Virus record (IMG/VR): IMGVR_UViG_3300024319_000003
Span: 103,697 to 167,696 of that record
Reading direction: 5' to 3' (one strand)
DNA from: a virus
Length of the DNA stretch: 64,000 bases
Made by a program: the position numbers and the translations under genes. The first letter of the stretch is position 1, and each line of letters begins with the position of its first letter. Of this stretch, positions 32,185-60,035 are shown in pieces. Below the pieces are notes generated by a model that was not told where the DNA came from, made no database searches, and saw nothing but the letters and a program-made list of their open reading frames with translations.

Positions 32185-32670
32185 ATGGCAGTATTAGACA
32201 CATCAGAAGTAATGTTTAAAGCCTTTGAACCAAAGGTACAAAACAGATTTGTAATGTATATCGATAACATTCCATCTTTCATGGTAAAGAATGTTAAAGC
32301 ACCTACCTTTACGGATAACATTATAAAACTAGACCACATTAACTCTTATAGAAAGATTAGAGGAAAAAGAGAATGGGAAGACATGACCTTCACATTATAC
32401 GATCCAGTAACACCTTCTGGAGCTCAAGCTGTAATGGAGTGGGCAAGATTAGGATACGAATCAGTAACCGGTAGAGCAGGTTATTCTGATATGTATAAAA
32501 AGGATTTGACTTTAAATATTCTAGGTCCTGTAGGAGACGTAGTTGGAGAGTGGATCATCAAAGGAGCTATTTTAACAAATGGAGACTTTGGACAGTATGA
32601 TTGGTCATCTGATGAACCAGTTGAAGTACAGATAACAGTAGCAATGGATTACTGCGTACTAAACTACTAG
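32185..32670 (+). CDS. Tail tube protein (T4 gp19-like)
   Basis: Follows the sheath gene; FEPK..NRF, G..EWEDMTFTLYD, YKKDL, W.IKGA pattern. Confidence 0.93.
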   Translation: MAVLDTSEVMFKAFEPKVQNRFVMYIDNIPSFMVKNVKAPTFTDNIIKLDHINSYRKIRGKREWEDMTFTLYDPVTPSGAQAVMEWARLGYESVTGRAGYSDMYKKDLTLNILGPVGDVVGEWIIKGAILTNGDFGQYDWSSDEPVEVQITVAMDYCVLNY

Positions 32671-52040: not shown

Positions 52041-52046
52041 TAGTAA

Positions 52047-52074
52047 GCGTTAGCCTATACGCGAAATACCTGGC
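52047..52074 (+). promoter_or_regulatory. Candidate pseudoknotted RNA leader upstream of queC
   Basis: GCGT/ACGC stem; loop GCC can pair with downstream GGC; a GC-rich island in an AT-rich gap. Confidence 0.35.
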
Positions 52075-52094
52075 AAATATTAAATAAGTAAATT

Positions 52095-53058: not shown

Positions 53059-53132
<74 letters not shown>

Positions 53133-53194: not shown

Positions 53195-53222
53195 AGTGTC
53201 GTAGCACCACTTTAAAAACACG
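53195..53222 (+). ncRNA. preQ1-I-like riboswitch aptamer 1
   Basis: AGUG-UCGUAGCAC-CACU-UUAAAAACACG: P1 stem, UCGYAG..C loop and A-rich tail, ending 3 nt before the ATG. Confidence 0.7.
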
Positions 53223-53225
53223 AAT

Positions 53226-53429
53226 ATGAATAAAGTAGTAAAAGAAAACTTCCAAGGAATTAAGATCAACGATCATAAAATTCCAGATCCAAAATTACAT
53301 CAATTAGTAAGTTTTATAAAATCCGGTATAAGAATACTGGGGTATATTTGCATACCCTTTAGTCTGGTATGGGCTACAATCTTTTTAGTTTTAAGTGAGG
53401 TAGTAGGAATAATAGAAGAATTAGTTTAA
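53226..53429 (+). CDS. Small membrane protein
   Basis: 67 aa with hydrophobic C-terminal half (KSGIRILG...LVLSEVVGIIEELV). Confidence 0.75.
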   Translation: MNKVVKENFQGIKINDHKIPDPKLHQLVSFIKSGIRILGYICIPFSLVWATIFLVLSEVVGIIEELV

Positions 53430-54815: not shown

Positions 54816-54981
54816 ATCACAATTTATAGAATGGTTACGAGGATTTGCAGAAGGAGTGCATCATTATAATATTACTCCTAAACAATGGGACCATTTAAAA
54901 GAGAAGCTACAATCAGTAGGTAGTAAATCTATAGCAAATTACTCTACTGGTAACTGGAAAATGAATCATACATGGGAGTAA
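54808..54981 (+). CDS. Small ORF (57 aa), absent from the track
   Basis: MNESQFIEWLRGFAEG...TPKQWDHLKEKL; overlaps both neighbours as in a coupled operon. Confidence 0.6.
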   Translation: MNESQFIEWLRGFAEGVHHYNITPKQWDHLKEKLQSVGSKSIANYSTGNWKMNHTWE

Positions 54982-55376
54982 AAAAAGTTTATTACGACTG
55001 GGACGATATAAATAAACTACTGGATAAAGTATATGACCAGTGTAAAGGAGATATATCACTAGTAACAGGTGTACCAAGAGGAGGTACAATATTAGCAATA
55101 CTGTTTTCACATAGATTTGATATTCAGTATACTCCTTATATGAGTAACCATTACCCTAGTATGCTTATACTAGATGATATAGCAGATTCAGGAAAAACAT
55201 TTAAAGACTTAGAAGAAGACTTTCCTAACCCTAAATATGGAGCTTTACACTACAAAACAACATCTGTATTTAAACCAGATTACTATGGTGAAGAAATAGA
55301 CGATGATTTTGGCTGGGTAGTATACCCTTGGGAAAAAGAAAATTCAAAACCTATTCAAGATTATTTGGATAATTAA
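54972..55376 (+). CDS. Type I purine phosphoribosyltransferase (Gpt-like)
   Basis: GVPRGG, PRPP loop LILDDIADSGKT, KPDYY and W..YPWE. Confidence 0.88.
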   Translation: MGVKKVYYDWDDINKLLDKVYDQCKGDISLVTGVPRGGTILAILFSHRFDIQYTPYMSNHYPSMLILDDIADSGKTFKDLEEDFPNPKYGALHYKTTSVFKPDYYGEEIDDDFGWVVYPWEKENSKPIQDYLDN

Positions 55377-55393
55377 ATTAAAAATCGTATATT
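55364..55393 (+). promoter_or_regulatory. TTTG-N20-TATATT promoter driving the folE unit
   Basis: Recurrent motif, directly upstream of aptamer 2. Confidence 0.72.
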
Positions 55394-55404
55394 GTATTAA
55401 TAAA

Positions 55405-55431
55405 TGAGTCGTAGAACCTCAATAAAACAAA
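55405..55431 (+). ncRNA. preQ1-I-like riboswitch aptamer 2
   Basis: UGAG-UCGUAGAAC-CUCA-AUAAAACAAA; near-identical loop to aptamer 1 with a different, compensated stem; 9 nt before the folE ATG. Confidence 0.7.
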
Positions 55432-55440
55432 TTAAATATT

Positions 55441-56154
55441 ATGCCTAAAAAATTTATAGACGGAACAGAATTAGTAAAAGCAGGATATGCAAATGGTATA
55501 TCAAGTCAATTAGCTGCAAAACAAGAATTAGAAGGACCTGAAGCAAGGTTAACTGAACATGAGAAAAAAGTAATTATAGAAAGAGCAGCAAATGCTTACG
55601 CAGACTTTTTAACTGCATTAGGATGTGATTATAAAGAAGATCCTAACTCATCAGATACTCCATTTAGAGTAGCTAAAGCATATGTTAATGACTTATGGGC
55701 CGGAAGGTATAACCCTCTAGATAGGATAACAGCATTCCCATCAGACGGATACGACGGAATCGTACAGGAGAGTAATATACCTGTAACCTCTATGTGTTCA
55801 CATCACCACCAAGCTATTAGCGGTACAGTTAGTATTGCTTATATAGCCTCTGAAGACGGTAAAGTAGTAGGGTTATCTAAGTTAAATAGAATAGTAGAAC
55901 AATTCGGTAGAAGAGGAGCTATCCAAGAACAATTAACTGTAGCTATTCATAATGCAGTAGATAAGATCTGTGAAGGTAATTTAGGAGTAGCAGTTCAAAT
56001 AAACGCAACTCATGCATGTGTATCATGTAGAGGAGTAAAACATAGAGGAGCTTCAATGCAAACAGCAAAATTAACAGGAGCATTTTTAAATGAAGATTCT
56101 GCAAAAGCAGAGTTTTATAAGAATATAGAATTAGCATCAATTTGTAAACATTAA
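55441..56154 (+). CDS. folE: GTP cyclohydrolase I
   Basis: TP.RVAK, SMCSHH, GLSKLNR, QEQLT and HACVSCRG motifs. Confidence 0.96.
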   Translation: MPKKFIDGTELVKAGYANGISSQLAAKQELEGPEARLTEHEKKVIIERAANAYADFLTALGCDYKEDPNSSDTPFRVAKAYVNDLWAGRYNPLDRITAFPSDGYDGIVQESNIPVTSMCSHHHQAISGTVSIAYIASEDGKVVGLSKLNRIVEQFGRRGAIQEQLTVAIHNAVDKICEGNLGVAVQINATHACVSCRGVKHRGASMQTAKLTGAFLNEDSAKAEFYKNIELASICKH

Positions 56155-56158
56155 TATT

Positions 56159-56686
56159 ATGGGAAAACAACTATCACTATTTAACGAAGATAATAACGAA
56201 GTATTTTATGCTCCTTCAGTACCATTTGTGGATGAAGTAGAAATATTCAATGATACTTTCGGTAAACCTAACAACTATGTACCTAATATACCTGAGAAAA
56301 AAGATTGGCAATTTGTATATGATTTCATCCTTGAAGAGCTTGAAGAATACAAAGCTGCCTGTGAAGCAGGTGATATTGTTGAGGTTCTTGATGCTTTATG
56401 TGACATTGCCTATGTTTCGTTGGGTAACGGAACTATGCTACATGGGCTTAAAGATAAAATATGGCCAGCGTATCAAGAAGTACAAGGGTCGAATATGTCA
56501 AAGGCTTGTTCAAGCGAAAAGGAAGCACAGAAAACAGTGGAAATTAGAGCAGTTGAGCAAAAGGAACCGTGTCACTACGAAAGGGTTGGTGCTTCTTATG
56601 TTGTCTATAGAACACGTGATAAAAAAGTAATGAAAAGCATAAATTACTATAGACCTAACTTAAAACAATTTTTCAATGAGCAATAA
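56159..56686 (+). CDS. MazG-like (all-alpha) NTP pyrophosphohydrolase
   Basis: EELEEY...EVLDALCDIAYV...SNMSK motif. Confidence 0.85.
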   Translation: MGKQLSLFNEDNNEVFYAPSVPFVDEVEIFNDTFGKPNNYVPNIPEKKDWQFVYDFILEELEEYKAACEAGDIVEVLDALCDIAYVSLGNGTMLHGLKDKIWPAYQEVQGSNMSKACSSEKEAQKTVEIRAVEQKEPCHYERVGASYVVYRTRDKKVMKSINYYRPNLKQFFNEQ

Positions 56687-56906
56687 AATTAATTTAGAAG
56701 ACCATAAAGTTTATATTGAAACACATAAAATGGAAATGGTACCTTTTTCAACAGCAGTTAAAGCAGTCCAAGAAGCATACGAAGATGATTCACAGGAACT
56801 ACTAGACGCTTTAGATATAGCAATAAGCAACTTATCAGTAGAGTTAACGAGTTTAAACCCAACACTAGAAGAATTAAATGATAAAAATAGCACACGAAAG
56901 TCCTAA
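56676..56906 (+). CDS. Hypothetical protein
   Basis: 76 aa ORF overlapping both neighbours. Confidence 0.6.
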   Translation: MSNKINLEDHKVYIETHKMEMVPFSTAVKAVQEAYEDDSQELLDALDIAISNLSVELTSLNPTLEELNDKNSTRKS

Positions 56907-57675
56907 AAGTATTTTTAACGAAGTACAGAGGCACACAGATTACGATTACGCATTAGTTCATCTTTTTGAAGAAGATAAAGAGTATCTTGAACAATTTAAA
57001 ACTGCAATTAAAAACGGTCGAGAAGTAATATTAGATAACTCTATATTTGAACTAGAAGAAGCATTTGATGCTGAAAAGTTTGCATACTGGATCAACGAGC
57101 TAAGACCAACCTGGTATATAGTACCTGACGCATTAGAGGATACTAAGAAAACTATGAGTCAGATGGCAAGCTGGAATATGAATTACTCAAAATCAGTATA
57201 TGGTAAAAAGATAGGAGTAGTACAAGGTAAGACATACAAGCAGATAGTAGCATGTTACGAATATATGGATAAAATTGCTGATGTAGACATGATCGCAATA
57301 TCTTTTGACTATTCGTATTATACCCATTCTATAACTCATCCTAACAAGTACGTTAGTTGGATGCTAGGACGTATTAAGCTACTTGGAGATTTGGTAAGAG
57401 ATGGTATTATAAATGAAAATAAACCTCATCATCTATTAGGTTGCGGACTACCTCAAGAATTTGCATTCTATAAAAACTCAAATTACGATTGGATATATTC
57501 GTTAGATACATCAAATCCAGTAGTTCACGGTATTTTAAATATTAGATACGAAACAGACGGATTATGGGATAAACAAAGACAGAAGCTATTTGAATTAATT
57601 AACTATAAGGTAGAAGATAGTAATTTAATTTTAAATAATATTCAAAAATTTAAATGGTTTACTAATGGTAACTAA
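56878..57675 (+). CDS. dpdA: TGT-fold 7-deazaguanine transglycosylase (phage DpdA family)
   Basis: ILDNS, IVPD, VVQG, HLLG and SLDTS match TGT/DpdA catalytic motifs; no Zn-finger; located inside a que cluster. Confidence 0.8.
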   Translation: MIKIAHESPKSIFNEVQRHTDYDYALVHLFEEDKEYLEQFKTAIKNGREVILDNSIFELEEAFDAEKFAYWINELRPTWYIVPDALEDTKKTMSQMASWNMNYSKSVYGKKIGVVQGKTYKQIVACYEYMDKIADVDMIAISFDYSYYTHSITHPNKYVSWMLGRIKLLGDLVRDGIINENKPHHLLGCGLPQEFAFYKNSNYDWIYSLDTSNPVVHGILNIRYETDGLWDKQRQKLFELINYKVEDSNLILNNIQKFKWFTNGN

Positions 57676-58207
57676 GCCCTGGATAGTATTCTTTAGTCAA
57701 ACTGGTGGAGAAATAGCTGATTTAGCTAAGTCACTTGGTAAATGGCCTGATAGAATATATACTAACGAAAGACCTGAAAGTCTTAGAGAAATAGATCCTA
57801 GAATAGTGGAAAAAGGTTTTTTTACCCTACCTAATAAACCTACTTTAGAAGATTATGAAGAAGTATTAGTATATTTTCCGGAAGCAATAATTACATTACA
57901 CGGTTGGTTACGTATTATGCCGAAAGAAGTATGTGAAAGATTTTCCATCTTTAACGGACATCCAGGCCTAATAACTGAATACCCGGAACTTAAAGGTAAG
58001 GATCCACAGATTAGAGCATTTGAAGGTAAATACCCAGTTATGGGATGTGTTCTTCATAAAGTTGATGCAGGGGTAGATGAAGGTAAAATACTAGCAGAGG
58101 AAAGATTCAATGCTTTTAAGATTACAGAAGAAGAAATGTGGGGTATATTTAGAGATAGATCATTATATATGTGGTCTATATTTTTAAAGAAAATATTTGG
58201 TTTATAA
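57665..58207 (+). CDS. PurN-like formyltransferase (DpdN-like preQ1 formyltransferase)
   Basis: FSQTG, L.GWLRI.P, N.HPGL..YP..KG and G..LH.VDAGVDEG.I match the GAR-transformylase fold; overlaps dpdA. Confidence 0.82.
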   Translation: MVTKPWIVFFSQTGGEIADLAKSLGKWPDRIYTNERPESLREIDPRIVEKGFFTLPNKPTLEDYEEVLVYFPEAIITLHGWLRIMPKEVCERFSIFNGHPGLITEYPELKGKDPQIRAFEGKYPVMGCVLHKVDAGVDEGKILAEERFNAFKITEEEMWGIFRDRSLYMWSIFLKKIFGL

Positions 58208-58225
58208 CATTTTTTTTCTTATATT
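58196..58225 (+). promoter_or_regulatory. TTTG-N20-TATATT promoter
   Basis: Recurrent motif. Confidence 0.7.
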
Positions 58226-58240
58226 AAATAAAAGGTTTTT

Positions 58241-58762
58241 ATGATAAAAAGAATAGCATTAGTAGGAGCAAGTAGTACAGGTAAGACTACTGTATATGAA
58301 TTATTAAAAAATAAATTACCTAAATATGAATTCGTAAACGAATCTACTAGAACTGTAGGTAGTTACGGATTTCCTATCAACGAGGAAGGTACTTGTGCTA
58401 CTCAGTTAGCTATTAGTAGTTTTCATTTAGAAGCTTTACTCCAACCTTATAACTTAGTACTAGATAGATGTTATATGGATGTTGTAGTTTATACTAAATT
58501 TATGAAAGGGGTAACTTCACATACGTACAGTTATATAGAAGATACTTGGAATAGGGTTAAAAATGAATATACTCATTATATTTACTTCCCTATTGAATTC
58601 GATTCAGTAGATGATGGAGTAAGGAGTATAAGTGAAGAGTGGAGAAAAGAAGTAGATGATGAATTTAAAGCAGTACTAGACGGAGTACGTCAACCTTACT
58701 TAACTATAACTGGTTCTCCTATGCAAAGAGTAGAACAAATAATGAAATTTATAAATGTATAA
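58241..58762 (+). CDS. P-loop nucleotide kinase-like protein (NadR/AAA_28 or dNMP kinase-like)
   Basis: GASSTGKTT, VLDR..D and DDGVR motifs. Confidence 0.8.
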   Translation: MIKRIALVGASSTGKTTVYELLKNKLPKYEFVNESTRTVGSYGFPINEEGTCATQLAISSFHLEALLQPYNLVLDRCYMDVVVYTKFMKGVTSHTYSYIEDTWNRVKNEYTHYIYFPIEFDSVDDGVRSISEEWRKEVDDEFKAVLDGVRQPYLTITGSPMQRVEQIMKFINV

Positions 58763-59120
58763 ATACGGAGCTAAATTAATTAGAGTAGTCGACGGAGATA
58801 CCGCAGATGTAATGATCGATTTGGGTTTTGATACTTGGGTTAAAGCAAGGTTAAGATTTAAAGGGGTTGACACTTGGGAAAAGAGAACAAGAGATTTACA
58901 AGAAAAAGCTAAAGGCTTAGAAGCCTCAGCATTTACAAAAAAGTATCTAGAGATGAATGATGGTAATTTTATCATTCAGTCGTACGGGAAAGGTAAGTAC
59001 GGTAGGATATTAGCTGAAATTTTCATAAAAGGAGAAGAAACCTCTTTAAATAAACTACTAATCGAAAACGGCCACGCTTACATATACGAGGGTGGTAAAA
59101 AACAAACATTTAAAAATTAA
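58755..59120 (+). CDS. Thermonuclease (SNase-like)
   Basis: RVVDGDT, R..GVDT.E, KYGRILA, N..L...G.A. Confidence 0.88.
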   Translation: MYKYGAKLIRVVDGDTADVMIDLGFDTWVKARLRFKGVDTWEKRTRDLQEKAKGLEASAFTKKYLEMNDGNFIIQSYGKGKYGRILAEIFIKGEETSLNKLLIENGHAYIYEGGKKQTFKN

Positions 59121-59123
59121 ATT

Positions 59124-60035
59124 ATGGCAGACGTAAAAAATTATCAAGAAGTAGTAGAAATAGCATCAAAGCATTTAGGTAAAGTTGGTGGTGATGGGTA
59201 TAAAGACACCTACTCACCTGAACTACTGGTCAAAGTACCAAGGTATTTGAATAGAGAAGGATACGGGTTAACCGATAAAAGCTTCGTAGGAGTAGATACT
59301 TGGAACTGTTACGAAGTCTCAGCAATTACAACTAAAGGTCAACCTGTAGCAGGTATGCTAAAAATTGTATGCCCTTCAGACTCAGAATATCACGTAGAAT
59401 CTAAATCTATTAAACTGTATTTAAATTCTTTTAATATGACCAGACTAGGAGATTGTTCAGCAGATTGTATGGCTGTGATAGAAGCTAGGGTAAAAGAAGA
59501 TTTAGACAAATTACTGGAAACAAATACAACAGTAAGTTTTTATAGTGATTTAGAGGACGGAAAAGCACTATCTTTTGAAGGTTATACAGATTTAGGTGAG
59601 ATAGTAGATTTAGATCAAATAGACTTTACAGCTTTTCAATCTGATGCTTCTCAGCTACTTATAGAAGATACTTCAGATACTCCAAAAGAAATAAAATTAA
59701 GATCTAACTTATTAAGATCTAACTGTAGAGTAACGAATCAACCAGATTGGGGTGATGTATTTATTAGAATGAATGGTAAAAATTTACCAGCAGTAGATTC
59801 GTTAGCTAAGTATATTGTATCTCATAGAACGGTAAGTCATTTTCATGAAGAAATATGTGAAATGGTATTTAAGCATTTAATGGATGCGTATAAACCAGAC
59901 GATTTAATGGTATCATGTCTATACACTAGACGAGGTGGTTTAGATATTAACCCTATTAGAGCTACGCATTCAAGATTTATACCAGACTTTTTTACACACA
60001 CAGATTATAGAATTGAAAAAACCTTAAGACAGTAA
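59124..60035 (+). CDS. queF: preQ0 reductase, bimodular type
   Basis: D.W..YE.S, VESKSIKLYLNSFN, SNCRVTNQPDWG, FHE and YTRRGGLDINP motifs. Confidence 0.95.
   Translation: MADVKNYQEVVEIASKHLGKVGGDGYKDTYSPELLVKVPRYLNREGYGLTDKSFVGVDTWNCYEVSAITTKGQPVAGMLKIVCPSDSEYHVESKSIKLYLNSFNMTRLGDCSADCMAVIEARVKEDLDKLLETNTTVSFYSDLEDGKALSFEGYTDLGEIVDLDQIDFTAFQSDASQLLIEDTSDTPKEIKLRSNLLRSNCRVTNQPDWGDVFIRMNGKNLPAVDSLAKYIVSHRTVSHFHEEICEMVFKHLMDAYKPDDLMVSCLYTRRGGLDINPIRATHSRFIPDFFTHTDYRIEKTLRQ

Follow-up and report, generated by a model that had tools for sequence, protein, structure and literature searches.

A conserved RNA motif that resembles preQ1-I aptamers in the folE leader of a virus with a 7-deazaguanine gene cluster

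The stretch of DNA under study, in the following called the window, comprises the final 64 kb of a 167.7-kb IMG/VR virus record. It contains a cluster of 7-deazaguanine pathway genes, including folE, which encodes GTP cyclohydrolase I, and a downstream gene set that spans positions 56159-60035; queC, queD and queE of the cluster were also identified by Pfam. It had been proposed that the folE unit encodes FolE, a MazG-like protein, DpdA and a formyltransferase. Pfam indeed finds FolE, the MazG-like protein and Formyl_trans_N, and DpdA was verified by its identity to the enzyme of vB_FspM_immuto_2-6A (immuto), a cultured phage with a Flavobacterium host. Between the pathway genes lie a PRTase-like gene and genes for a MazG-like pyrophosphatase and a P-loop AAA_28 protein, all of which are conserved in relatives. 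A megablast search with the 8-kb cluster against the GenBank phages yielded no match. The features of the locus are listed below with their positions in the window.

53195-53225, plus strand: sister copy of the motif, AGUG-UCGUAGCAC-CACU-UUAAAAA-C-ACGAAU-AUG (53195-53222 up to ACG); best match of the covariance model R1 (see below) in the genome, 54.8 bits
53199-53207, plus strand: loop of this copy (aptamer 1), UCGUAGCAC
54972-55376: PRTase-like gene
55365-55395, plus strand: promoter-like element, with TTG at 55365-55367, a gap of 20 nt, and TATATTGT at 55388-55395
55405-55408, plus strand: 5' arm of P1 of the folE-leader motif, UGAG, read from the sequence
55409-55417, plus strand: 9-nt loop of the folE-leader motif, UCGUAGAAC, read from the sequence
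55418-55421, plus strand: 3' arm of P1 of the folE-leader motif, CUCA, read from the sequence
55422-55430, plus strand: A-rich L3 tail AUAAAA (55422-55427), C55428, then A's, read from the sequence
55431-55443, plus strand: AU-rich spacer and folE start codon (55441-55443), read from the sequence
55441-56154, plus strand: folE, GTP cyclohydrolase I (Pfam PF01227, E 3e-42)
56159-56686, plus strand: MazG-like gene (PRA-PH/MazG-like, Pfam)
start at 56878, plus strand: dpdA (78% identity to the immuto DNA guanine transglycosylase)
start at 57665, plus strand: dpdN-like gene for a PurN-like formyltransferase (Pfam Formyl_trans_N)
58241-58762, plus strand: P-loop ATPase gene (AAA_28)
start at 58755, plus strand: nuclease gene
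start at 59124, plus strand: queF (Pfam)

The motif before folE is situated in a gap of 64 nt between the stop codon of the PRTase-like gene (55374-55376) and the folE ATG at 55441. The order of elements is TTG, 20 nt, TATATTGT, 9 nt, and UGAG-UCGUAGAAC-CUCA-AUAAAA-C-AAAUUAAAUAUU-AUG, and the leader that contains the motif has a length of 37 bases up to the ATG. The letters and the position before folE are exactly those quoted in the original prediction, and the coordinates proved to be right. A Shine-Dalgarno sequence is absent between the motif and the folE ATG. An upstream open reading frame of 14 codons (55404-55448), which starts with an AUG inside P1 and has a TAA that overlaps the folE start, was considered and rejected; it is not conserved in leaders with GGAG, AGUG or GGUG stems, and its opening within P1 is probably incidental.

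The sister copy is located 6 nt before an open reading frame of 67 amino acids, which is followed by queD and queE. It had been claimed that the folE copy is the second of a pair within one genome, and both copies, before folE and before the queD/queE unit, were confirmed. The statement that the two loops differ at a single position was likewise correct. The number of differing stem pairs has to be revised from three of four to two of four (A-U to U-A and U-A to A-U), and the two G-C pairs are unchanged.

Several further observations were made at the sister locus. The reading frame behind the sister copy (53226-53429) encodes a hydrophobic protein without a Pfam family. It is kept before queD in many relatives, and where it is absent the aptamer directly precedes queD or queE. 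The 5' arm of the queD-unit copy can also pair one register inward (53196-53207, GUGU with GCAC, -2.4 kcal/mol). This pairing competes with P1 and hides the specificity cytosine (see below), and it is possible only for loops that end with ...GCAC. A tRNA gene (53059-53132, Rfam tRNA, 66.9 bits) lies between queC and the promoter of the sister aptamer, and its anticodon loop was read as tRNA-Ala UGC.

The motif had been described as following directly after a promoter. A sigma-70 scan lists the TTG together with TATATT (55388-55393), yet the number of such sites is at background level (32 found versus 39 expected in shuffles). The element does recur in relatives: a TAnnTT box is present in the leaders of 65 of 68 distinct relatives, and in 54 of those 65 a TTG is found at the right spacing. 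The promoter-like element is of the Bacteroidota -33/-7 type, and the transcript would thus begin a few bases before P1.

Most properties of the isolated motif were inconspicuous when they were compared with chance expectation. The exact 9-mer of the loop alone is not beyond chance within the 64 kb, and with one mismatch allowed it occurs at chance level in the window, so it was discarded as evidence. The folE hairpin alone is weak (-1.5 kcal/mol), with a z-score that is not significant versus shuffles. The sequence AAAAC is present in 8 of the 41 leaders of the window, and thus the A-rich tail partly mirrors a general A-richness of leaders. A terminator-like site was not detected from the leader to folE, and thermodynamic folding of the leader did not reveal an alternative "anti" helix. 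As there is neither an alternative helix nor a significant z-score, an ON design or an attenuator receives no support. The motif is raised above chance by its conservation with compensatory changes and by its exclusive position before deazaguanine-pathway genes, which are described in the following.

The conservation was analyzed with 80 viral contigs that encode close relatives of FolE, found by protein search, and with contigs that match a degenerate pattern of the motif. Most folE leaders of the fetched relatives carry the motif. A covariance model (R1) was built from the collected motif sequences; when applied to 780 kb of related phage DNA, it found 98 instances, of which 62 were distinct. 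Its E-values are rough, and R1 was built from the family itself. The four base pairs of P1 can form in 99.5% of cases in 52 distinct sequences and in 99.6% of cases in the 62 distinct ones. Three of the four pairs change on both sides and none changes on a single side, while the closing G-C pair never varies. The covariation of P1 scores above all 500 shuffles, a statistic that is inflated by related sequences, and it collapses when the register is slid. The stem types comprise UGAG/CUCA, UGUG/CACA, GGAG/CUCC, GGUG/CACC, AGUG/CACU and UAAG/CUUA. At least five stem types occur in interleaved FolE identity classes, which indicates that several independent compensatory events have occurred.

In the loop, U1, A5, G6 and C9 are invariant in the alignment A1 and in the additional variants, and positions 3, 4, 7 and 8 vary (variants include UUGAAG, UCGGAG, UCACAG and ...CCC). 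The penultimate A of the loop shows no exception in A1, and L035 and L072 are the only variants with a C in its place. Every instance has a tail with a run of four or more A, followed by C-A, and the distance from the tail C to the ATG is 4-13 nt in 68 distinct leaders. The loop G and the tail C, which could form a P2 pair, are both invariant, and hence this pair is without covariation. Additional P2 pairs were considered, namely between the CG of the loop and the CG of the tail in copy 1 and between a loop U and a tail A. They were rejected, because the tail shows no compensation for the loop variants UCACAG, UUGAAG and UCGGAG. Divergent copies were found before the small ORF-queD unit of several relatives (L029:1193-1231, L051:733-771, L021:1618-1656, L035:934-972). 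They have the loops UCACAGCAC or UCGUAGCCC and reveal which loop positions tolerate change.

Taken as a pattern, the arms vary and covary, the asymmetric loop and the one-sided tail are kept, and the motif invariably has one orientation to the gene, with its sequence on the sense strand. This argues for an RNA hairpin with a functional loop, and it upholds the claim that an RNA structure, and not a DNA operator, has been selected.

The distribution of the motif is narrow. In the whole genome of 167.7 kb, R1 has exactly two matches, at 54.8 and 47.5 bits, and the match ranked third has 15 bits. Both are leaders of deazaguanine-pathway genes, namely folE and the small ORF-queD-queE unit. Three other complete relatives have two, one and one matches, and the single match in vB_FspM_immuto_2-6A is the folE copy (32360-32398). 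Throughout the related phage DNA, instances in an AT-rich leader context are found exclusively before folE, small ORF-queD(-queE), queD or queE. Matches of the degenerate pattern elsewhere are chance matches in GC-rich coding sequence, and they are rejected by R1. The enrichment upstream of que and folE genes of relatives, which had been suggested as a check, was therefore found, with all copies confined to leaders of the deazaguanine pathway.

Not all relatives possess both copies. The folE copy is missing from several in which the pathway is complete, namely L029, L058, L072 and L031-33, the last of which retain the queD copy alone, so the element would serve to tune the pathway and would not be one of its obligatory parts. 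The clusters in which the motif is found also contain queF and the formyltransferase gene, and it is missing from more distant folE-dpdA loci at which these two genes are not close by. A correlation of the motif with queF holds for the distant loci but was not accepted, as it is confounded by relatedness and four queF-bearing relatives are without a folE copy.

To cover the host side, 302 Bacteroidota genomes were reached via the phage GroEL, i.e., 151 Flavobacteriaceae and 151 further Bacteroidota. The phage motif was not detected in these 302 genomes, in which R1 yielded only three weak, non-homologous hairpins. The curated Rfam model of preQ1-I aptamers, RF00522, found one element above the cut-off in the 151 Flavobacteriaceae genomes (L298, 50 bits) and none above it in the 151 further Bacteroidota genomes. 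As far as the 302 sampled genomes show, the phage has not copied a riboswitch that is common among its probable hosts. The chromosomal L298 element comes from the probable host family and shares the general fold with the phage element, but it differs in having a P1 of 6 bp, a loop of 12 nt that ends with UC, as in type I, and a CUAAG tail.

The original prediction had called the element preQ1-I-like, and the likeness was examined with two approaches. The curated model recognizes neither copy: RF00522 (consensus aGuGG-UUCGuAAaCcUC-CCaCu-AUAAAAAACUAAGg, with a P1 of 5 bp) gave no match to either window copy, neither at the gathering score (39 bits), nor with a limit of E<=10 when segments of 201 nt or of 45 nt were searched, nor with the whole genome. 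The model does give a correct alignment with a homologous folE leader, that of the relative L083 (21.8 bits, E 0.0054 on 66 nt), which has a P1 of 5 bp and the 10-nt loop UUCGAAGCAC; this was the only PreQ1 match in 40.7 kb.

The second approach was a comparison by position with the aptamer of T. tengcongensis (Tte), CUGGG-UCGCAGUAAC-CCCAG-UUAACAAAA-CAAGGG (PMC10639078), and every pocket position of Tte has a counterpart in the window. In the class I pocket, G5-C16 is the floor, U6 reads N9 of preQ1, and C7-G11-C30 is the ceiling (PMC11625349). An adenine of L3 reads the minor-groove edge of the ligand, and the specificity cytosine directly adjoins the 3' strand of P1 on its 5' side; the base ahead of this cytosine is A in types II and III but U in type I (PMC11625349). 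The corresponding positions are as follows.

Tte G5-C16 (floor): G55408-C55418 of the window
Tte U6: U55409 of the window
Tte C7: C55410 of the window
Tte G11: G55414 of the window
Tte A14 and C15: A55416 and C55417 of the window
Tte A29: A55427 of the window
Tte C30: C55428 of the window

When UGGG-UCGCAGUAAC-CCCA...AAAAC-AA of Tte is set against UGAG-UCGUAG-AAC-CUCA...AAAAC-AA of the window, the sole difference in the stem is compensatory, and the window loop equals the Tte loop at eight of nine positions. The invariant U, G and C of the loop and the invariant closing G-C pair are the pattern that is expected if U6, G11, C15 and G5-C16 of the known pocket are constrained. With preQ1-I type II (Tte, the B. 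subtilis queC leader and RF00522) the phage element shares the H-type layout, the closing G-C pair, a loop that opens with U and then C, a loop G that is able to pair with a C at the end of an A-rich tail, and the bases AC directly ahead of the 3' strand of P1. Like preQ1-I elements, it is placed in leaders of preQ1-pathway genes.

The differences concern size and surroundings. In contrast to Tte, P1 of the phage element has 4 bp instead of 5, L2 is one base shorter and lacks the Tte U12, and L3 is shorter (6-8 nt). To our knowledge no solved aptamer combines a 4-bp P1 with such a shortened L2/L3 geometry. Unlike in preQ1-I type II, the 3' strand of P2 does not contain a Shine-Dalgarno sequence and there is no terminator platform, and the element is carried by a phage, where it precedes folE and queD/E for DNA modification and not for tRNA queuosine. 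Type III, represented by the E. coli leader (PMC10622847), belongs to the same class of small H-type pseudoknots that control translation, but its P1 is followed by UU and it sequesters an AAGG Shine-Dalgarno sequence, whereas the phage element has UC after P1 and no such sequence. Type I (C. antarcticum) has UC before the 3' strand of P1 and binds two ligands; the phage element has AC at this site. Judged from the letters, the pocket features of preQ1-I are thus present, while the usual expression platform is lacking; the sequence is compatible with P2 in every instance, with both partners invariant. The curated model does not include the element. Of the predicted likeness to preQ1-I, the match to the pocket therefore stands, and the membership in the curated family does not.

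From these results, the folE leader is likely to be a miniature class I type II preQ1 aptamer that acts as a translational OFF switch, and the same would apply to the sister copy. We infer that the ligand is free preQ1 or its precursor preQ0, that the pseudoknot forms, and that control is exerted on translation in the OFF direction. The ligand would pair with C55417, U55409 and the final tail A would serve to read it, and it would be stacked on G55408-C55418 under a ceiling of G55414-C55428. The A-rich tail would be drawn into the groove of the 4-bp P1, yielding a compact H-type pseudoknot that ends 12 nt before the folE AUG. The folded positions would be -37 to -13 of the folE mRNA and -31 to -7 for the sister copy. 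The folded knot would lower the loading of 30S subunits and lead to less FolE, and the sister copy would act likewise on the small ORF-queD-queE unit. Together, both copies would match the supply of the 7-deazaguanine base to its insertion into the phage DNA by DpdA, and the motif thus probably lets the phage throttle the synthesis of the modified guanine for its DNA.

The leader contains no terminator and no competing helix, and therefore the control would be at the level of translation initiation. The hosts are likely Flavobacteria, which rely on an A-rich initiation region that is free of structure. In F. johnsoniae translation occurs without the use of Shine-Dalgarno sequences, and the strength of initiation is adjusted by the structure of the mRNA and by adenines upstream of the start (PMC6847099). 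In such a host group a read-out other than Shine-Dalgarno masking is expected. One report describes a class I type I aptamer that lies apart from the ribosome-binding site and still regulates translation (PMC10018353).

It had also been assumed that both GTP-consuming entry steps of the pathway are under feedback control. This is incorrect, because GTP is the substrate of FolE alone and later pathway intermediates are the substrates of QueD and QueE (PMC10516641; also established pathway knowledge). The DNA of vB_FspM_immuto_2-6A has every guanine replaced by 7-(formylamino)methyl-7-deazaguanine (formyl-preQ1) (PMC10516641). If G is likewise replaced throughout, about 6x10^4 bases would be needed per genome copy, with one GTP each, and folE would control a very large flux.

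Four other explanations were weighed against the preQ1 aptamer. An aptamer of the same fold might be tuned to another 7-deazaguanine of the phage, such as preQ0, CDG, or formyl-preQ1, provided that the DpdN-like enzyme modifies the free base. No characterized member has an L2 and a P1 as short as these and RF00522 fails, which would suit a different ligand, and class I preQ1 aptamers bind preQ0 too. In the closest cultured relative the modification of the DNA leads to formyl-preQ1, and formylation may come before or after insertion (PMC10516641). However, the positions that read the guanine-like face and the minor-groove edge are all canonical, and the sequence gives no hint of an additional contact by which a formyl or a carboxyl group would be recognized, so this explanation appears unlikely.

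A translational operator that is bound by a phage or host RNA-binding protein, without a small-molecule ligand, is judged to be quite improbable. A conserved loop on a covarying stem near a start codon is also typical of operators that are bound by proteins, the hairpin by itself is too weak, and the cluster contains several small open reading frames without assigned function. On the other hand, the likeness to the preQ1-I pocket and the placement before preQ1-pathway genes would then be coincidence, and a candidate RNA-binding protein was not identified.

Next, the motif could be a conserved 5'-terminal structure without sensing, either an mRNA stabilizer or a promoter-proximal element of middle or late promoters. 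It is located at the probable 5' end of the transcript beside a conserved TATATT box, and some relatives do without it. But only two of the many promoters of the 167.7-kb genome have the motif, both in the deazaguanine pathway, and a mere stabilizing hairpin needs no invariant unpaired loop bases, which makes this explanation very improbable. The chance that the 4-bp inverted arms near a promoter are a DNA inverted-repeat operator for a dimeric repressor is practically negligible, because variable arms, a conserved asymmetric 9-nt spacer with a one-sided tail, and an always identical orientation to the gene are the reverse of what characterizes an operator.

The preQ1 aptamer thus remained the preferred explanation. 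A farther-reaching version of it would be a phage-specific preQ1-fold class of about 26 nt, the smallest natural metabolite sensor, which is free of a Shine-Dalgarno sequence, maybe tuned to formyl-preQ1 or preQ0, and part of a two-switch regulon that meters the replacement of G in the whole genome; we regard this version as rather unlikely.

We know of no riboswitch that controls a DNA-hypermodification pathway. According to a survey from 2017, phage riboswitches are rare and were represented only by c-di-GMP-I elements in C. difficile prophages and glutamine aptamers in cyanophages (PMC5473149). These are likewise metabolite-sensing RNAs carried by phages, but their ligands do not include a 7-deazaguanine, and none of them acts in the control of DNA modification. 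The study of formyl-preQ1 in the DNA of immuto does not mention riboswitches or regulation (PMC10516641), and a full-text search for preQ1 riboswitches in phage genomes retrieved nothing relevant within a limited literature collection. If the explanation is true, the preQ1-I fold extends to a shorter form that is missed by the curated model, and the element would be a clean case of riboswitch control that is independent of Shine-Dalgarno sequences in hosts whose ribosomes ignore them. As the cultured phage vB_FspM_immuto_2-6A has a folE copy, the idea is directly testable.

A third leader of the cluster, that of queC (52044-52094), is also structured, with a different sequence (AGCGUUAGCCUAUACGCG...AAUACCUGGCAAA) and no Rfam match at E<=10. 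The hairpin, GCGU/ACGC in the window, occurs in 10 related leaders and is preserved there, where compensatory changes to GGAU/AUCC and ACGU/ACGU are seen. The loop sequence GCC can pair with a downstream GGC, which would form a pseudoknot.
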